Shown here in pieces: positions 569-8,842 of a stretch of 64,000 nucleotides of DNA. The DNA comes from Escherichia phage inny, in sequence record MN850601.1. The stretch is one strand, 5' to 3'. The position numbers and the translations under genes are program-made. The notes beneath the pieces are model-generated. The model searched no databases, was not told the origin of the DNA, and worked only from the letters and a program-made list of their open reading frames with translations. The stretch's first letter is position 1; every line of letters begins with the position of its first letter.

Positions 569-628
569 TATATCTCCTTCAAAGAAAAGGAGCCGTTAGG
601 CTCCTTATATTCACACAATACTTAACTA

Positions 629-1576
629 TTAGAAACAGTGCAGGAAGTTTCGACCATACTGCAAACCAATAGGAGCAAATGGGATATCATCATCGAAATC
701 TTGAACAACAGGTTCTGGTTCTTTCGGTGCTGGTTCTTTCTTCTCTACTTTTTTAGTTTCTTTCTTAACTTCTTGTACTGGGGTAGACATTCCACGGATA
801 GCAGCAGCTACTTTATCAGACAAAGCAAGAACTTCACGAGCAGCTTCAATAATCTCTTCTGCCGTTACAGTTTTACCTGTATGATCACGACAAGCGTTAA
901 GAATTGCGTGTCCAACTGAAGCACCAAGATCATAGTCAGTCACATCAACGCCACGATCTTTAGCAATTTCTGCTTTCAGAGTAACAGTTGCAGATTGTAC
1001 CACACCAGCCAAGTCGAAAGCATCACCTTTCACACCAGCACGTAGAAGCTCCAGAGCGCCGTTTACAGCGTGTCCTGTTTCAATCCCTACGGTATCACGT
1101 TTTTTGTAGTTAGGCTTGCTACCTTCGTTATTAGATGGCTTATTTCCACCTTTTGAAGAAGATTGTGCTTGCTGAACACCTTCTGTTGAAAGAATAGTGA
1201 TTTTACCTTTAGAGGAATTGTAGTATGTTTTGCCATTCCATTCAGAAGGTTTAACATCCATAGTTAGTTCTACACCTTTTTCGATAGTAACCCACTTATC
1301 ACCATCTTTAACTTGCAGGTTTTCATGTTCTGGGTGCAGTTTAACTTCACCTAGGCTAACCCAAACACCTTTATCATCAGCACCAGCACCTTTCTCTTTA
1401 ATAAGCAGGGATGCTTTGTGAGTTGATTCAATTTTCTTATCTGGTTGACCTGCAACCTTAATATAAGAGACTTTCATTTCATCAAACTTATCCAGTTTGA
1501 CATATTCAACGATACCTTCAGCCCAGAATGCTTCTTTTTTAGTACGACGGTCGATTTCAGAATTAATTACTGGCAT
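629..1576 (-). CDS. ssDNA-binding protein-like
   Basis: 315 aa; C-terminal region ...EPVVQDFDDDIPF matches E. coli SSB acidic tail motif (here followed by 15 more residues); Gly/Ser/Asn-rich linker. Confidence 0.45.
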   Translation of the reverse strand: MPVINSEIDRRTKKEAFWAEGIVEYVKLDKFDEMKVSYIKVAGQPDKKIESTHKASLLIKEKGAGADDKGVWVSLGEVKLHPEHENLQVKDGDKWVTIEKGVELTMDVKPSEWNGKTYYNSSKGKITILSTEGVQQAQSSSKGGNKPSNNEGSKPNYKKRDTVGIETGHAVNGALELLRAGVKGDAFDLAGVVQSATVTLKAEIAKDRGVDVTDYDLGASVGHAILNACRDHTGKTVTAEEIIEAAREVLALSDKVAAAIRGMSTPVQEVKKETKKVEKKEPAPKEPEPVVQDFDDDIPFAPIGLQYGRNFLHCF

Positions 1577-1592
1577 AAATTCTCCTCTATAA

Positions 1593-1991
1593 TTACATTA
1601 CTTTAACACAAAACTCTCGTAAAAGAGTAGCGTCAGTTTCTTCCAACAGGTATTTACCAAGACCAATACCAAATCCTATTTCACCACTTTCGAAATGGAG
1701 GATTTGTATCTTTTCTCCACCAAGATTAATTACTTTTGCTTTTCCAGGATTATCCAAAACATCTCGTATTGTATCCTGTAGTAACATAAGCTCACGTTTT
1801 GTGATAGTGGTTTCAGATATCTCTTTGTTTTCTACTCTCACTGTTAAACGATTGTATCCACCAAAGAGACATAGTATTTGAATAAAAAAGGTATTATCTT
1901 GAGGTTCAACATCTTTTTTGGTTAGCTCAAGACGATTAGTTTCTCTACTGTAGAACGTCTCGACTAAGATTTTAGAACGATTATCTGTCAT
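1593..1991 (-). CDS. hypothetical protein
   Basis: 132 aa ORF, co-directional with leftward block. Confidence 0.5.
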   Translation of the reverse strand: MTDNRSKILVETFYSRETNRLELTKKDVEPQDNTFFIQILCLFGGYNRLTVRVENKEISETTITKRELMLLQDTIRDVLDNPGKAKVINLGGEKIQILHFESGEIGFGIGLGKYLLEETDATLLREFCVKVM

Positions 1992-2034
1992 TCAAGTCCT
2001 CATAATAACACATAATTATAATGTTTGTCAACAC

Positions 2035-2628
2035 TTAAATTTTAAATTCTTCATTGTTAAATGAATCCAGTGTACGTACTTCTGGTTCTTTGGGAATGAA
2101 AACGTCTTTTACAAAACGGAACATAGGGAAACGTTCTGCCATTTTACGGACGTGTGCTTCTTTACCCGTGTATCGGTGATTAATAGTACAAATATTAGTT
2201 TTCAGTGCAAATTCAAAATCTGGATGATATACGTAATTTTGACCATCCCAGTAACACAAGCAAATAGCTACATCAAAGTTCCATACGATTTCACTGCGTA
2301 CACCTTCTTCCATGATCATAAAGTTAAACTTAAGATCTTTATAGTATGCTTCAAATACCCATTTCAAATGTGGTAGTTCGGCATAAGTGTGTTCTGTTTG
2401 CTTAGTAAGTTGTTTAACATTACGTGCACCAACACCCAACATCAAAAATTTCTCTACTAGTACGAGTGTATTGTGGTTAGGCATACGCAAGTAAATATCA
2501 ATATCTTGCGCAGGTTTCTCTAATCGCCAGTCACGTACAGCGCCGCCAGCTACAATTGCAAACGGATCTACCAGTTGGCACATACGTAATACTTCTAAAG
2601 CTCGTACTTTTTGATCTTCAATATTCAT
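2035..2628 (-). CDS. nucleotidyltransferase (Pol-beta superfamily; CCA-adding-enzyme head-like)
   Basis: 197 aa; motif IVAGGAVRDWRLEKPAQDIDIY (GGxVRD...DxD). Confidence 0.6.
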   Translation of the reverse strand: MNIEDQKVRALEVLRMCQLVDPFAIVAGGAVRDWRLEKPAQDIDIYLRMPNHNTLVLVEKFLMLGVGARNVKQLTKQTEHTYAELPHLKWVFEAYYKDLKFNFMIMEEGVRSEIVWNFDVAICLCYWDGQNYVYHPDFEFALKTNICTINHRYTGKEAHVRKMAERFPMFRFVKDVFIPKEPEVRTLDSFNNEEFKI

Positions 2629-2767
2629 ATTTTCTCCTATCTCTTATGGTCTTTGCGTTATTCTAGATGTTCAAACATCTAATTATGAAATGGTTTAAAA
2701 GTGCGGAACAACCTTGGCAATCACAGATTGTTCCACATAAAAACTCCTTATAAAACAATATGTTAGA

Positions 2768-5347
2768 CTAGTGACAAGACGCCCATGAGTTACCAACATC
2801 GTAACCAGCAGTGAGAGGTACATTAAGATTGTAATACTCACCAGCTTTATTAACAGCGATAGATGCTAATTCTCCAGCACGACTGTAGGCTGTAAACCAA
2901 CCACCTTTCGGAGATTCATGTACGTTAGCCCAAATCTTGCCAGTACGTTTCTCTTCCTCTTCTTTCCAGGCATTAACCTTATCCAAACATTCTTTATCAA
3001 TTTTCTTTTGTTCTTCTGGATCATCAACTTGAGTCCAACCTAAAGATTCTTTAGAAAACCATTTAAAATGCACCAGATCACGAGTTACTTCAAGCTGTGC
3101 TTCATCGTGATATGCAATCATTTGTTGAACGAATGACTTATTTTTCCAGTCATCAACAAAAAAGTCAACAGCTAATCCTTCTTCTTCGATAAGATCGTCG
3201 TAGATAACCATTGCTCTTTTTGCACAAATAACACCACCACTCTGGAACAGAGAGTTAAGTATTGCGTGTGCAGATCGTGTAGGTACTTTTCTACCATCAA
3301 TACCAAGAATGTATTTCTTACCTGTTTTAACCCAAAAATCATGCAGACGTTCTTTAAGAAGCGCAAGAGGTTTTGCAGCTTCCCAGAAAGCATCGTATAC
3401 AAGTTGTCCTGTATACATATCACTACCTATAGTTTTTGCTACTTTTGCAGCTTGAGCACCATAAGTAATACCATACTTAACAGATTTAGCAGGGCTTCGT
3501 TCAAACTTACGACCAATAGTGTCAGAAATACGTCGAGCCATCATTGTATGAACATCATTAGGTTTTTCCAATAATAGAGCATTACAATATTCGTGTGGTT
3601 CCTGCTCGTACCGCCAACAGTAGTGTGATTCTATTTTTGCCTCAAGAGAATCAAAGTCATAACCAATTTGGAAGTATTTTGGAACTTCTACACCAAATAA
3701 GTTACGCATTTCATATCCGTACAGAGATGTTACACGTGGGATATTTGCTACTAACCTATGTTTCATACGAGACGTAGCTGCATCACACGTTGCAGCAGGG
3801 GTTGGTATACGACCATCAGCCCTTACTGCCGCCAGATAACCTTTATCGTAATCCTCTTCATCTTCTTCCCAATCAGCACCACCACCTAGGATAGAGTTTC
3901 TACGATGTTTATACGTAAGATATTGCACAATCTGCGTAGCATAAGGAAACTTTTCACCCAGTGCTTCCAAGTTAGGACAAATATCTTTCTCTTGCCCTTT
4001 TGTAAAGGAAGGGTTAGTAAGCACTTTAACACCACGACCTTTAGCTTTAGCAATACGATCTCTTAGTTTCCATTCCAAAGTTTCTGGTGTGCACTCCAGA
4101 TGATCACATCTGTCCTGGCAGAAGTTAGATGCTAATGTTTGATCAACATAGTCACGAATAGCTTTCTCCATTTGTGCTTCATCTTTCTTAATCTTAGTGC
4201 CAGATTTAAGAGTGATATCTTTATCTTTATATTCAGATGGACTCCAACCTAAACCAACTAACCAGTTTTTAATATGTGTAGTGTCGTCTAAAGTAGCAGG
4301 TACTGTAGGATCACAAATAGGTTCTTCTGCTGGAATAGGGAGTTTAAACTCTTTACCTAATGCAAATAGCCACCAACCATCTTCTTTTTGTACAAGTTCA
4401 CCAGAATGTTTCTCTGCAAACTTTATCATGTTACTTGAAGGTTCACCATTCTTTTTAAACTGTAGTTTAGGTGGAATGAATGATTTCAAATAACCTTTAG
4501 TAGCAGGTTTAGGAGGTAACACAGGTTCTGCCTCTAAACGACATGCTTCCATTCGAGCATCCAGATCACGAATATTATCTTCTGCTTGTTTCATATTGAA
4601 AGCAAAGCCACGGTGCTCTTGACGTGTAATAATATCAGCTACACGTTGTTCTAAGTTAAAGGGTTCAGACCATTTATTATAATCACCCCACTCTTCCATC
4701 AAATAACGGAATACTGCGGTGTTAGCTTTGTTATCGTAAATACAGTAATACAGCATATCTGCTGCAAATGTTTTAAATCTTTCAGTTTCAGGAATGTTTT
4801 TTCTAAAATCAATTTTAACATCCCCTCCAGCTTTCTTAGATAACTCTGCCAGACTATGACCACCGAAGCGATCAGGGTTTAGTGTCTTACTTAAGATCAT
4901 AGTATCACAAATTTCAATGTTACTATTACCCCAAGTATTGTACTTAATACTGTAGTTGAGTTTAAAAAATAATTTAATTGCCAGTAAGTCAAAGTTAATG
5001 ATGTTATGTCCAACTACTTTGGTAATTTTATAGTTTGAATTACCTTTAAATTTACCTGTTCCATTTACAAAATCAGGAAAATCTTTAAGAGGGAAATGGG
5101 TATATTCTAAATGCTCATATTCCTCCAGTCGGTATTCATACTTTCCGTCAGTCTCAACATACGGACGACCATCGAAAAGATATTTATCACCATCATGGAA
5201 AGCAATAATCTCTCCAGTATCATGACTTTCGCACACAATACAGTGCATTGCAAAACTATCTTTTAAACGATATGGACTTGCCAAGTAATCTACACTTTCG
5301 TCATTAAGCAAGTTGTTACTTTCAATGTCGAAAGTAAAAGCTCCCAT
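2768..5347 (-). CDS. DNA polymerase, family A, with 3'-5' exonuclease domain
   Basis: 859 aa; exo motif FTFDIESNN at N-terminus; motif A-like GYDFDSLEAK, motif B RSPAKSVKYGITYG, motif C AYHDEAQ. Confidence 0.9.
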   Translation of the reverse strand: MGAFTFDIESNNLLNDESVDYLASPYRLKDSFAMHCIVCESHDTGEIIAFHDGDKYLFDGRPYVETDGKYEYRLEEYEHLEYTHFPLKDFPDFVNGTGKFKGNSNYKITKVVGHNIINFDLLAIKLFFKLNYSIKYNTWGNSNIEICDTMILSKTLNPDRFGGHSLAELSKKAGGDVKIDFRKNIPETERFKTFAADMLYYCIYDNKANTAVFRYLMEEWGDYNKWSEPFNLEQRVADIITRQEHRGFAFNMKQAEDNIRDLDARMEACRLEAEPVLPPKPATKGYLKSFIPPKLQFKKNGEPSSNMIKFAEKHSGELVQKEDGWWLFALGKEFKLPIPAEEPICDPTVPATLDDTTHIKNWLVGLGWSPSEYKDKDITLKSGTKIKKDEAQMEKAIRDYVDQTLASNFCQDRCDHLECTPETLEWKLRDRIAKAKGRGVKVLTNPSFTKGQEKDICPNLEALGEKFPYATQIVQYLTYKHRRNSILGGGADWEEDEEDYDKGYLAAVRADGRIPTPAATCDAATSRMKHRLVANIPRVTSLYGYEMRNLFGVEVPKYFQIGYDFDSLEAKIESHYCWRYEQEPHEYCNALLLEKPNDVHTMMARRISDTIGRKFERSPAKSVKYGITYGAQAAKVAKTIGSDMYTGQLVYDAFWEAAKPLALLKERLHDFWVKTGKKYILGIDGRKVPTRSAHAILNSLFQSGGVICAKRAMVIYDDLIEEEGLAVDFFVDDWKNKSFVQQMIAYHDEAQLEVTRDLVHFKWFSKESLGWTQVDDPEEQKKIDKECLDKVNAWKEEEEKRTGKIWANVHESPKGGWFTAYSRAGELASIAVNKAGEYYNLNVPLTAGYDVGNSWASCH

Positions 5348-5843: not shown

Positions 5844-7616
5844 TTAATAAGAACCAGCAGAAATATTTTCTGGGTTACTTGTGTATTGATCGTAATCGTG
5901 AAGTGTAGCTGTTTTAATCTCATAAAAGAAACTACCTGCTGCACCAGTCTCTGAAAACTCACGGTTCTTTAGAATGTAGCAATATGTGCGGTTACGTTCC
6001 ATAGGATCTTCAGCTTGTTTATCACGCTCCAGCGCAATTGTGATACCAGCACCTTTAGCAAGGAAGCTACTACCCATTGCATCATCTTCTACAATATGTT
6101 CATTACTATTGTTAGAAGACTTTTTAACGTGTGAAATTACAACAATGGTTATTGCGTACTCTTTCATAATGCGTTTCAGCCACGTCGCAAGTTCCTCTTG
6201 TTGTGACACGTCCATACCAGAAAGCAAGTCAGAATAAGGGTCGATAACAAGAATGGTTACTCCGAAATAAATAATCATTTCCAGAACCTTCTCTTTAATC
6301 ACATCTACGTTAGCTCCACGATCATCACAAACATAGAAACGTGGTGTTCCATCTTCTCGTTCGTAAAAATCACGAATCTTTTCTTCATTATCTTTTAAAA
6401 TCTTTTCCTTCTCTTCTTTCGTTTTACGGTGAAGAGGGATATGCAAGAATGAAGACAGTAAGTTACGAGAATACTTCTTATACGTTGCCTCCAAAGATAA
6501 AATACCAAGAGTATGTTCTGGGTGTGCAAGAATAATGTGTTTCGTAATCTCGTTAACCAACAGTGTCTTACCGATACTTGTTTTTGCAAGTATAACAGTA
6601 ATTTCTTCTTCTACCAAGCCTCCACCTAACATATTTGAAGCAACACGCATGAATGGAGGAAGGGTGATCATTTTAGCTTCCAGGCATTCCAAGGCTGCTT
6701 CATACAGTACGTTAGAAGCGTAAACACCAGCAGGTGTGTACAGTTTAGCTTTGAAAAAGCGATCAATAAAATGATCAATTTTTCCTTCTACTAGTGCCTG
6801 GTTAGGATCTTTAACATCAGTTAGTTCCATCACGTAAACTTTATTACGTGGTAAGATTTTAACACATTTCTCAACTGCTGCACGTCCAGCTTCATCATTA
6901 TCCATACATAGAACAATCTTTTTAAATTGGTCTAAGAATTTATAACGATGTTGAAGCTGCTTATGCAGAGATGTTTCGCCACAAGTACCAGATACTACAG
7001 CAGGAACAGGATATTTACCACCCTTGTTATAATCTTTTAGCATCTGTGTTGCAGCCAGCATATCGTGTTCACCACCAACGATTAGAATAGTACCGCTGTG
7101 GTTACGATATTTAAACTCCCCAAAAAGATCACAATCCTTTCCTGTTTCACCGATAGGATGTGAGAAATCTTTTGGATCGATACGTTGTTTATACCCAGCA
7201 ATATTGTAATCTTTAGTTGTAGGGTATAGTGTTGAAATTACTTCGCCAGTAGCTTCATCGTACATATAACGTACACCGAAAGGCTTAGAGATATCTTCAC
7301 GAATACCGCGATAACCTTTTGGATTAGTTCCAGTGCTGGCTTTTAGTTTATCATGTACTTCTGGATTAAACTCACTACCCAAGATATCCTCCTCTTCAAT
7401 TTCTTCGCCGTGTGCATTTAACCATTTTTGATCAGGGATAGTAAAGCCACAAGAAAAACAATGTGCGCCTCGATGGTCTTCATCGGCATCTAAGCCATAT
7501 ACCATCAAATTGTTTTGTGATCGATCACGCCCTCCTTTCATACAACGAGGACACCCAGTATGTCCTTCTTGACTCAGATCAATGTTATACCCATATTTAT
7601 TTACAACATAAGACAC
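5844..7616 (-). CDS. DNA primase-helicase (T7 gp4-like, DnaG-type primase fused to DnaB-type helicase)
   Basis: 590 aa; N-terminal zinc finger CPRCMKGG...CFSCGF; TOPRIM-like VLCMDNDEAGR; helicase Walker A LAKTSIGKT. Confidence 0.9.
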   Translation of the reverse strand: MSYVVNKYGYNIDLSQEGHTGCPRCMKGGRDRSQNNLMVYGLDADEDHRGAHCFSCGFTIPDQKWLNAHGEEIEEEDILGSEFNPEVHDKLKASTGTNPKGYRGIREDISKPFGVRYMYDEATGEVISTLYPTTKDYNIAGYKQRIDPKDFSHPIGETGKDCDLFGEFKYRNHSGTILIVGGEHDMLAATQMLKDYNKGGKYPVPAVVSGTCGETSLHKQLQHRYKFLDQFKKIVLCMDNDEAGRAAVEKCVKILPRNKVYVMELTDVKDPNQALVEGKIDHFIDRFFKAKLYTPAGVYASNVLYEAALECLEAKMITLPPFMRVASNMLGGGLVEEEITVILAKTSIGKTLLVNEITKHIILAHPEHTLGILSLEATYKKYSRNLLSSFLHIPLHRKTKEEKEKILKDNEEKIRDFYEREDGTPRFYVCDDRGANVDVIKEKVLEMIIYFGVTILVIDPYSDLLSGMDVSQQEELATWLKRIMKEYAITIVVISHVKKSSNNSNEHIVEDDAMGSSFLAKGAGITIALERDKQAEDPMERNRTYCYILKNREFSETGAAGSFFYEIKTATLHDYDQYTSNPENISAGSY

Positions 7617-7628
7617 AGGATTCTCCTA

Positions 7629-7898
7629 CTAAAATGATTCGTTTGTCTCCATAATATATTGCATTTCCAAATCTTCCATATGTTTCTTAAATTGGTAAAC
7701 AATTTCCGATGGGGAAATATCTATATCAAAAAGTTCTTTTGTACCAGAATAAAATCTAATACCATCAACAATAAGACCACCATAATAATCCCAATCACTT
7801 TCTCGTGAGAAAGGGTTAGGTTCTTCATAATAGTAATCTACTTCAACAATAATAGGTTCTTTATTATCTTGTTTATACTCAAAATCAAAAGTGTTCAT
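7629..7898 (-). CDS. hypothetical protein
   Basis: 89 aa ORF in leftward block. Confidence 0.5.
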   Translation of the reverse strand: MNTFDFEYKQDNKEPIIVEVDYYYEEPNPFSRESDWDYYGGLIVDGIRFYSGTKELFDIDISPSEIVYQFKKHMEDLEMQYIMETNESF

Positions 7899-8842
7899 TA
7901 TAAATCCTCGATAAGCAGTCTGCGGGTTTCATTTAAATCATCAATATTGTAGTTATCTCTTACATACTTAGCAAGAGCCAATCCCTTCTCAATACAAACA
8001 TCAGGAGATTCGATTAAGTATTCTACAATATCTTTCCACTCTTTAACTGAATCAGCAAAGAAGATTAGATCTTTAAATTCTTCAGTATAATAGTTCTCTC
8101 GTGGTGAACAAACGAGTGGCAAACCTTTAGCACCAGCTTCAAGAATTTTTAAATTACTTTTGGCATTATTAAAATGATTATTTACTAATGGAGCTATGGA
8201 GATTTGATGACCATCGTATGCTTCCATATAACACTCATAAGGACGAATACCTTCATAAACACAATCTGGTTGAATATCTTCTTTAATTTGCAACCATTGA
8301 GCACTACTTAACTCTTCGTGATCTCTACGAAATCCACATAAAGTTAAATCTTTACCAAAACCAGGAAGAATTGCTAAATCATGTTTATGTGTTTCACTTC
8401 CCGCCCAAACTAGTGGACTTTTAGAATAACGGTCTTTCGTAAGAACAAACTGTCCTTCATCAAAAGGTAATCCGTTAGGCACAATATGTACATTATCATT
8501 GTATTGGCTTAATTCAACCTTTAATGCCGGAGTTGTTGTAGTTACAAGATCGCTTCTTTCAAGGAACCATTTTAGGTCATCTCGGATTTGATTTTCAAAT
8601 AGTCCTTCAAGCATATGCCCTTCAGGAATAATTAAAGAATCATCCAGATCCATTACCAATTTAAACCCAAGTTGTTTAAGAGCCAGGAAACCTGGCTTTC
8701 CACGTGTTGGTACTCCATTGAACACAAAAATATTATGCTTAGGATTAATTGTCAGTTTGCGTTTATATGGCAAAATGATTCTATGAAAATCACATATACT
8801 ATACTTTTCATTTCCGCGTGTGTCAAGAATAATATTAGGCAT
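7898..8842 (-). CDS. glycosyltransferase (GT-B fold-like)
   Basis: 314 aa; C-terminal KILEAGAKGLPLVCSP resembles GT-B donor-binding motif; paralog of next gene. Confidence 0.55.
   Translation of the reverse strand: MPNIILDTRGNEKYSICDFHRIILPYKRKLTINPKHNIFVFNGVPTRGKPGFLALKQLGFKLVMDLDDSLIIPEGHMLEGLFENQIRDDLKWFLERSDLVTTTTPALKVELSQYNDNVHIVPNGLPFDEGQFVLTKDRYSKSPLVWAGSETHKHDLAILPGFGKDLTLCGFRRDHEELSSAQWLQIKEDIQPDCVYEGIRPYECYMEAYDGHQISIAPLVNNHFNNAKSNLKILEAGAKGLPLVCSPRENYYTEEFKDLIFFADSVKEWKDIVEYLIESPDVCIEKGLALAKYVRDNYNIDDLNETRRLLIEDL

Follow-up and report, generated by a model that had tools for sequence, protein, structure and literature searches.

The 64,000-nucleotide (nt) stretch of Escherichia phage inny analyzed here (MN850601.1; hereafter, the window) encodes a predicted nucleotidyltransferase of 197 amino acids (aa) at positions 2035–2628 on the minus strand, with an ATG start in the list of open reading frames (ORFs) of the window. 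Sequence comparisons place this protein in a stand-alone phage family with a domain of ~175 residues, rather than as half of a CCA-adding enzyme, and identify the N-terminal nucleotidyltransferase domain of the phage protein Gad2 as its closest functionally tested relative. As to function, we tentatively favor an active minimal nucleotidyltransferase that would nucleotidylate a nucleic-acid 3′ end or a small nucleotide in host takeover or counter-defense, a reading that we hold to fall just short of probable.

Family membership and relation to Gad2

The 197-aa ORF with GGAVRD...DIDIY motifs that the initial annotation had described is a real gene, as the reading frame, the ATG and an AGGAG site (also annotated in phi92) are all present, and its product is, by its database matches, a known phage enzyme. 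The window shares 98–99% nt identity with phi92-like E. coli myophages (Justusliebigvirus, Stephanstirmvirinae), and 100% identical proteins occur in many Justusliebigvirus records, where they are labelled "nucleotidyltransferase", which is also the RefSeq name. The protein matched PHROG 1614 (E = 2e-34, residues 7–193) and PHROG 10174 (E = 2.2e-26), and 110–111 of 111 relatives matched both. PF26128 (PF26128.2) is the precomputed Pfam domain of its cluster and the sole domain in ~190 relatives.

An exhaustive hidden Markov model search recovered 997 clusters (50% identity) at E < 1e-3 and 280 at E < 1e-10. Nearly all of these clusters are 175–220 aa in length and match profile positions 1–175. 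For ten longer members no additional Pfam domains were found and the cluster names were uninformative; their extra length is probably due to mis-called starts. BFVD likewise contains many viral proteins of this fold with lengths of 170–215 aa, among them both phage and giant-virus ones. The window protein carries the signature of this single-domain family, AGGA(P/V)RDW...DxDxY together with K162. Thus, of the earlier description of the protein as about half a CCA enzyme, the short, single-domain part stands, and the idea of a truncated enzyme does not, as the protein is a full-length member of a family of 997 clusters. The gene, the family and the fold class are already in public databases and have been noted in the literature.

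A shorter version was observed in Vibrio phage ICP1, in which gp223 (locus L003, 4959–5372) encodes a 137-aa N-terminal form of the PHROG 10174 type, without the C-terminal part that carries K162.

Gad2, a predicted nucleotidyltransferase of ~400 aa described from SPbeta-like Bacillus phages, abolishes Gabija defense (Yirmiya et al., preprint 10.1101/2023.05.01.538930). Using Gad2 sequences from the supplementary tables of that study, hhalign of our family against nine Gad2 homologues gave a probability of 97.4% (E = 9.7e-12) over 122 columns, which span query residues 13–152 and Gad2 residues 18–142. Against the experimentally verified Gad2 of B. laterosporus alone the same comparison gave 92.5% (E = 5e-7), pairwise BLASTP reached E = 1e-5, and HMMER cross-matches went down to 3.6e-10. 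By the same hhalign method, only 26 columns (motif A) were aligned with a class II profile. The full ~400-aa architecture of Gad2 was not found, as the alignment stops at Gad2 residue 142. We conclude that the window protein is a relative of the Gad2 catalytic domain and not a Gad2, because the C-terminal half of Gad2 is absent and the residues after GG read (P/V)RDW rather than ITSLF.

Long Gad2 homologues (474–485 aa) were also observed in two Vequintavirinae, Cronobacter phage GAP31 (locus L088, 7001–8425) and Klebsiella phage KpS8 (locus L089, 3501–4958), directly downstream of a large tRNA array and upstream of spanin and terminase genes; 23 of the 25 tRNA genes of GAP31 encode CCA. The placement of a Gad2-like gene beside a tRNA array was rejected as general evidence, since it was seen in these two phages only and not in Vibrio or Aeromonas phages.

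Fold, catalytic center and missing motifs

From sequence alone, the signs of a class II head are weak, though they agree with one another. The Pfam model of the PolyA_pol head (PF01743) matched the window protein with E = 0.0017 and 19.1 bits, below its gathering cut-off of 23, and matched weakly in only 17 of 111 family members. NCBIfam CCA models scored 14–15 bits against cut-offs of 281–290. The family profile matched CCA-adding enzymes of the PDB with E = 0.002 over residues 9–49 only, single-sequence searches of PDB sequences and NCBIfam gave marginal motif A matches only, and hhalign against E. coli Cca and against a four-sequence class II profile aligned only 24–26 columns confidently. 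A homologue search with the N-terminus of E. coli Cca returned only relatives with >70% identity, and the class II profile was not improved. Global hhalign alignment to class II enzymes is unreliable, and the register of motifs B and D given below was taken from family conservation rather than from structural superposition.

An AlphaFold2 model built from 111 homologues had a predicted local distance difference test score (pLDDT) of 94.2 and a predicted template modelling score (pTM) of 0.86. When this model was searched with Foldseek, the top 45 PDB matches were all class II CCA-, A- or CC-adding enzymes or E. coli poly(A) polymerase (E = 3e-6 to 1e-3; template modelling score ~0.5–0.57 over 176–200 columns). 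The class II tRNA nucleotidyltransferase head and motif A proposed in the initial annotation are thus borne out by the Pfam match, the family profile and the predicted structure, the fold assignment holding because the best PDB matches of the model are all class II; an unrelated fold family, which that annotation had named as an outcome that would speak against it, is not what the comparison gave. Both the head-domain (Pol beta-like) fold and motif A of class II enzymes are found in the protein, and the resemblance, judged from sequence and model together, exceeds chance. We conclude that the domain is of class II tRNA nucleotidyltransferase/poly(A) polymerase ancestry and derives from the head of those enzymes together with a vestige of their neck.

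Conservation was profiled in the 111-sequence family alignment. G28, G29, W34, D42 and D44 are invariant, and Q6, A10, A27, A30, R32, D33, A40, Y82, K162 and F167 are at least 90% conserved. D42 and D44 align with the DxD of class II enzymes and of Gad2. At position 93 (E93), 70% of members have an acidic residue, at position 102, 96% have Q or N, and position 162 is K in 108 and R in 3 of the 111 members; we infer that K162 may contact the phosphates of the nucleoside triphosphate (NTP) or nucleic acid. Since the metal/NTP center GG...DxD is intact, the minimal nucleotidyltransferase is probably catalytically active.

In class II enzymes, the RRD of motif B reads the ribose of the NTP and so selects ribonucleotides, and the EDxxR of motif D is the amino-acid template that chooses CTP or ATP. 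No conserved Arg-Arg-Asp was found anywhere in the family alignment: only positions 7, 32, 128, 145, 162 and 166 are at least 60% basic, and the motif B segment reads xxF(P/D/S)x(S)IC. In the C-terminal half of the alignment, where the structural register is inferred, neither an E-D pair nor an Arg is conserved; conserved there are Y153, H/Y159, K162, K/R166, F167 and P168. Neck, body and tail domains are all absent, the protein ending at residue 197 and the family domain being ~175 aa, as opposed to genuine E. coli-type CCA enzymes of ~400 aa that combine PF01743 and PF12627, with or without PF01966. With RRD, EDxxR and every tRNA-binding domain lost, CCA cannot therefore be built in the fashion of a CCA enzyme, and the protein is unlikely to be a true CCA-adding enzyme.

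Genomic setting and divergence of the nucleotidyltransferase gene

The nucleotidyltransferase gene lies in a minus-strand block with the order primase-helicase, small ORF, DNA polymerase A (PolA), nucleotidyltransferase, gp157 and a gene for a protein like the single-stranded DNA-binding protein SSB, followed by a hairpin (Table 1). As it shares its strand with the DNA polymerase and primase-helicase genes and lies inside the replication module, co-expression with them is likely.

Table 1 Features of the window in and around the nucleotidyltransferase gene.
Feature	Position	Strand	Basis
Phi92_gp158 orthologue coding sequence, minimal nucleotidyltransferase	2035..2628	-	ORF list; PHROG 1614/10174; Pfam PF26128
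GGAVRD codons, residues 28–33, first half of motif A (NTP/metal-binding loop)	2530..2547	-	read from sequence
DIDIY codons, residues 42–46, catalytic DxD carboxylates	2491..2505	-	family alignment
K162 codon, basic residue in C-terminal helix	2143..2145	-	column statistics
Ribosome-binding site AGGAG, 5 nt before ATG	2634..2638	-	sequence
Primase-helicase (DnaB-like)	5844..7616	-	ORF list; phi92 annotation
Family A DNA polymerase, 859 aa, upstream neighbor	2768..5347	-	ORF list; phi92 annotation
gp157 (Phi92_gp157, PHROG 16560), 132 aa, downstream neighbor	1593..1991	-	ORF list; relatives
SSB-like gene, last of block, with SSB C-terminal tip motif DFDDDIPF	629..1576	-	several relatives annotate a single-stranded DNA-binding protein
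Sigma-70-like promoter TTGACA-18-TATTAT, 11/12 matches, extended TG	2002..2031	-	consensus scan, pattern match only
Terminator-like hairpin and T-run, closing the block after the SSB-like gene	587..606	-	pattern match only

We surveyed the gene context in 80 related IMG/VR loci. A DnaB-like primase-helicase gene neighbors the nucleotidyltransferase gene in 58 of them and a PolA gene flanks it in 45, in both cases mostly on the same strand; the PolA gene is usually downstream, and upstream in the window. Also recurrent are a 5′-3′ exonuclease, a ligase-like ORF (called from sequence only) and homing-endonuclease-like ORFs. The gene order of phAPEC8 is the same as that of phi92. RNA-repair genes (RNA ligase, PNK), defense effectors and toxin–antitoxin partners were not found among the neighbors in the 80 loci, and PADLOC gave no match.

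A comparable position is taken by ORF16 of phage LKD16 (phiKMV group), which encodes a 199-aa "nucleotidyltransferase" homologous to the family (hhalign 93.6%, E = 2e-7) and sits between the helicase and the ligase/PolA genes. This homology ties in the short "tRNA nucleotidyltransferases" of Autographiviridae, where CCA-enzyme-like genes near phage polymerases have already been noted (PMC7693777, PMC8472413).

Within the Stephanstirmvirinae-like phages, the nucleotidyltransferase is the fastest-evolving protein of the block (31–52% identity), compared with the DNA polymerase (70–87%), the primase-helicase (70–88%) and the SSB-like protein (55–78%). Against phAPEC8, identity is 37% for the nucleotidyltransferase, 79% for the DNA polymerase, 60% for the SSB-like protein and 56% for gp157, and the pattern repeats in seven further loci. 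Such divergence at the sequence level fits a host-interaction gene (arms-race-like) better than a core replication factor. The gp157 protein evolves fast too (30–66% identity). Its gene always follows the nucleotidyltransferase gene in Stephanstirmvirinae-like phages and co-occurs with it in 10 of the 80 loci; a single-sequence AlphaFold2 model of gp157 was unusable (pLDDT 45).

Several further features of the block were observed. The sigma-70-like promoter lies directly past the stop codon of the nucleotidyltransferase gene, in front of gp157, which suggests that gp157 and the SSB-like gene may be transcribed separately by the host polymerase. In related phages DFDDDIPF is the exact C-terminus of the SSB-like protein (as in the E. 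coli SSB tip). The ORF of the window runs on past this motif for another 15 residues (APIGLQYGRNFLHCF), as does that of phi92, and the C-terminal Phe, normally free, would thereby be buried. In the window nothing interrupts the DNA polymerase gene; in phi92, UAB_1 and "cardinal" an insertion of ~730 nt splits the match to it in two (the phi92 coding sequence is 3315 nt), which suggests an intein or homing-element polymorphism within the gene.

The gap between the polymerase and nucleotidyltransferase genes is only 139 nt in the window. In a PD06-like phage, a homing-endonuclease-like ORF of ~198 aa with no Pfam match is located between the two genes (locus L008, 5396–5992), and such an ORF recurs near the nucleotidyltransferase gene in 27 of the 80 loci. 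The gap in the window contains a perfect 18-bp palindrome, TAGATGTTCAAACATCTA, at 2664–2681 and two imperfect inverted repeats at 2702–2763; the palindrome was rejected as a repeated regulatory motif, since it occurs once in the window. At the edge of the replication module, just past the primase-helicase gene, phi92 has four predicted glycosyltransferase genes (gp163–166), the first of which is at 7898–8842 (minus strand) in the window.

Possible functions and comparison with known systems

In the reading that we favor, the enzyme would act in the replication phase and use an NTP or a deoxynucleoside triphosphate (dNTP). Two Mg2+ ions would be held by D42 and D44 (plus E93), and the nucleotidyl group would be put on a hydroxyl of an acceptor, probably a small nucleotide or the 3′ end of a nucleic acid. 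The result would serve host takeover or counter-defense, as with Gad2-type enzymes, and not the housekeeping of a tRNA CCA enzyme. Besides the relation to Gad2 and the arms-race-like divergence, the toxicity of overexpressed Emajogi gp22 (see below), a phage nucleotidyltransferase with some homologues annotated as Gad2 family, speaks for this proposal.

Several points weigh against this proposal. The gene is a core gene in essentially all Stephanstirmvirinae and has a fixed position in the replication module, and in this it looks like housekeeping rather than like a swappable anti-defense gene; Gad2, in contrast, is encoded in a dedicated anti-defense locus. The C-terminal domain of Gad2 (~200–250 aa), a possible carrier of the anti-Gabija activity, has no counterpart in the 197-aa protein, and at the residues after GG, where Gad2 has ITSLF, the (P/V)RDW of the phage family is like the VRD of CCA enzymes. 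All structural neighbors of known function act on RNA 3′ ends, and our literature search turned up no biochemical work on this family or on the chemistry or mechanism of Gad2.

A more specific proposal, which we consider unlikely, is that gp158-type proteins are free-standing catalytic cores of Gad2-type counter-defense enzymes that have become fixed in replication modules across many phage lineages (phi92-like myoviruses, T7/phiKMV-like podoviruses and many uncultured phages). Their role would be to neutralize a defense that senses replication or nucleotide depletion (e.g., Gabija), through transfer of a nucleotidyl group to a small nucleotide or to the 3′ end of DNA or RNA. If true, the chemistry would be new to phage anti-defense.

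The conserved position between the primase-helicase and PolA genes in very different phages (the loci surveyed above, LKD16 and phAPEC8) and the core-gene status in the subfamily are what a replication accessory enzyme would lead one to expect, i.e., one that adds untemplated nucleotides to DNA 3′ ends or RNA primers, or conditions ends for the polymerase/helicase machinery. Loss of the RRD, which reads the 2′-OH, would permit the use of dNTPs. However, we know of no class II-type enzyme that acts on DNA, and the protein evolves at about twice the rate of the replication proteins around it. ICP1 has only the truncated 137-aa version, and many phages with the same replication module, T7 included, are without this gene (PMC7693777). 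On balance a replication role appears doubtful.

The question of tRNA 3′-end repair, raised in the initial annotation, turns in part on the tRNA genes of the phage. ARAGORN found none in the 64-kb window, in agreement with the initial annotation. This does not extend to the phage: the full-genome search which that annotation had called for, made in a fully sequenced relative with a 99% identical protein (MG065645.1), gave a single cluster of 15 tRNA genes, located outside the region that matches the window, so their absence is an effect of the window and not a property of the phage. All 15 end in an encoded CCA, and CCA synthesis is therefore not needed to mature the phage tRNAs.

An enzyme that adds C, C or A back to host or phage tRNAs after trimming by exonucleases or defense nucleases would still agree with the class II head fold and motif A and with the presence of tRNA genes in the phage. 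A defense system that cuts tRNA CCA tails exists (Cas12a3, PMC12851939), the longer Gad2-like homologue of Vequintavirinae directly follows a tRNA array, and at one locus (L015) 10 tRNA genes lie within 6 kb of the gene for the nucleotidyltransferase. Nevertheless, no line of evidence points specifically to tRNA 3′-end repair, and we regard CCA repair as improbable. The conserved RRD and EDxxR and the body/tail domain of genuine enzymes are missing, the Pfam and NCBIfam CCA models stay far below their cut-offs, and the host has its own Cca. Moreover, CCA is already encoded in the phage tRNA genes and in most of those of GAP31, a tRNA gene lies within 6 kb in only 5 of the 80 loci, and no RNA ligase or PNK neighbors were found in them.

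We give somewhat less credence still to poly(A)-polymerase-like RNA tailing, by which host or phage RNAs would be marked for decay, e.g., in ribonucleotide recycling or host shut-off. Structures of E. coli poly(A) polymerase (3aqk, 3aql and 3aqm) are among the top fold matches, and gp22 of the P. putida phage Emajogi, a nucleotidyltransferase encoded next to the primase/helicase, is toxic on overexpression (bioRxiv 10.64898/2026.09.15.751885); some homologues of gp22 are annotated as Gad2 family in the same study, and we liken it to the window gene by position and annotation. The RNA-binding neck, body or leg domain and the base-selecting motif are absent, however, and no association with RNase or degradosome genes was seen in the 80 loci.

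Very improbable is a signalling-nucleotide synthase, as suggested in the initial annotation, or a toxin of a toxin–antitoxin or abortive-infection pair (MNT, MenT/AbiEii or CD-NTase type): the protein is a minimal Pol-beta-superfamily enzyme and the small, fast-evolving gp157 could in principle be a partner, but PADLOC gives no match, the fold neighbors are class II enzymes and not cGAS/OAS, MNT or DUF1814 proteins, the inspected loci have replication genes and gp157 rather than an effector or HEPN neighbor, gp157 co-occurs in few loci, and an abortive-infection toxin is of no obvious use to a virulent phage.

Taken alone, the finding matters little, as the protein is an annotated nucleotidyltransferase of a published phage group. 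Our analysis puts numbers on the link to Gad2 and adds a test of membership in the CCA-adding enzymes, with a negative result. The family is large (~1000 sequence clusters), orphan and fast-evolving, and a phi92-like E. coli phage offers a convenient test system for it.

Compared with class II CCA enzymes, the phage proteins share the head fold and motif A (GGxVRD...DxD), and the remnant of "DFT(I/V)NA" reads NFDVAIC here. The CCA enzymes differ in their length, which is double, in the neck, body and tail domains with which they hold the tRNA, and in having RRD (motif B) and EDxxR (motif D), neither of which is conserved in the phage family; sequence similarity between the two extends over only ~26–40 residues.

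The Autographiviridae genes (those of Pectobacterium phages PP47, PP81 and Q19, ORF16 of LKD16 and gp22 of Emajogi) resemble the window gene in the length of their products (~170–200 aa) and in the position between helicase and ligase/DNA polymerase genes (PMC7693777; bioRxiv 10.64898/2026.09.15.751885). They differ in forming a separate subfamily, which tblastn with the window protein did not retrieve, and the LKD16 protein has a more CCA-enzyme-like segment, "FDYTLNQ". To our knowledge, the phages that carry these genes are podoviruses without tRNA genes.

Gad2 is likewise phage-encoded and shares with the family the motifs (I/L)AGG and D(L/I)D(V/I)Y(F/L), the strand (V/I)Q(I/L)(M/I), the segment F(D)x(T/S)(V/I)C followed by a beta-hairpin, and H.DF. 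The published list of its homologues also includes short proteins of 214–278 aa (10.1101/2023.05.01.538930). The comparison sharpens a testable hypothesis, namely that CCA enzymes are more distant from the family than the Gad2 catalytic domain is, and tests on its members might reveal how Gad2 works.

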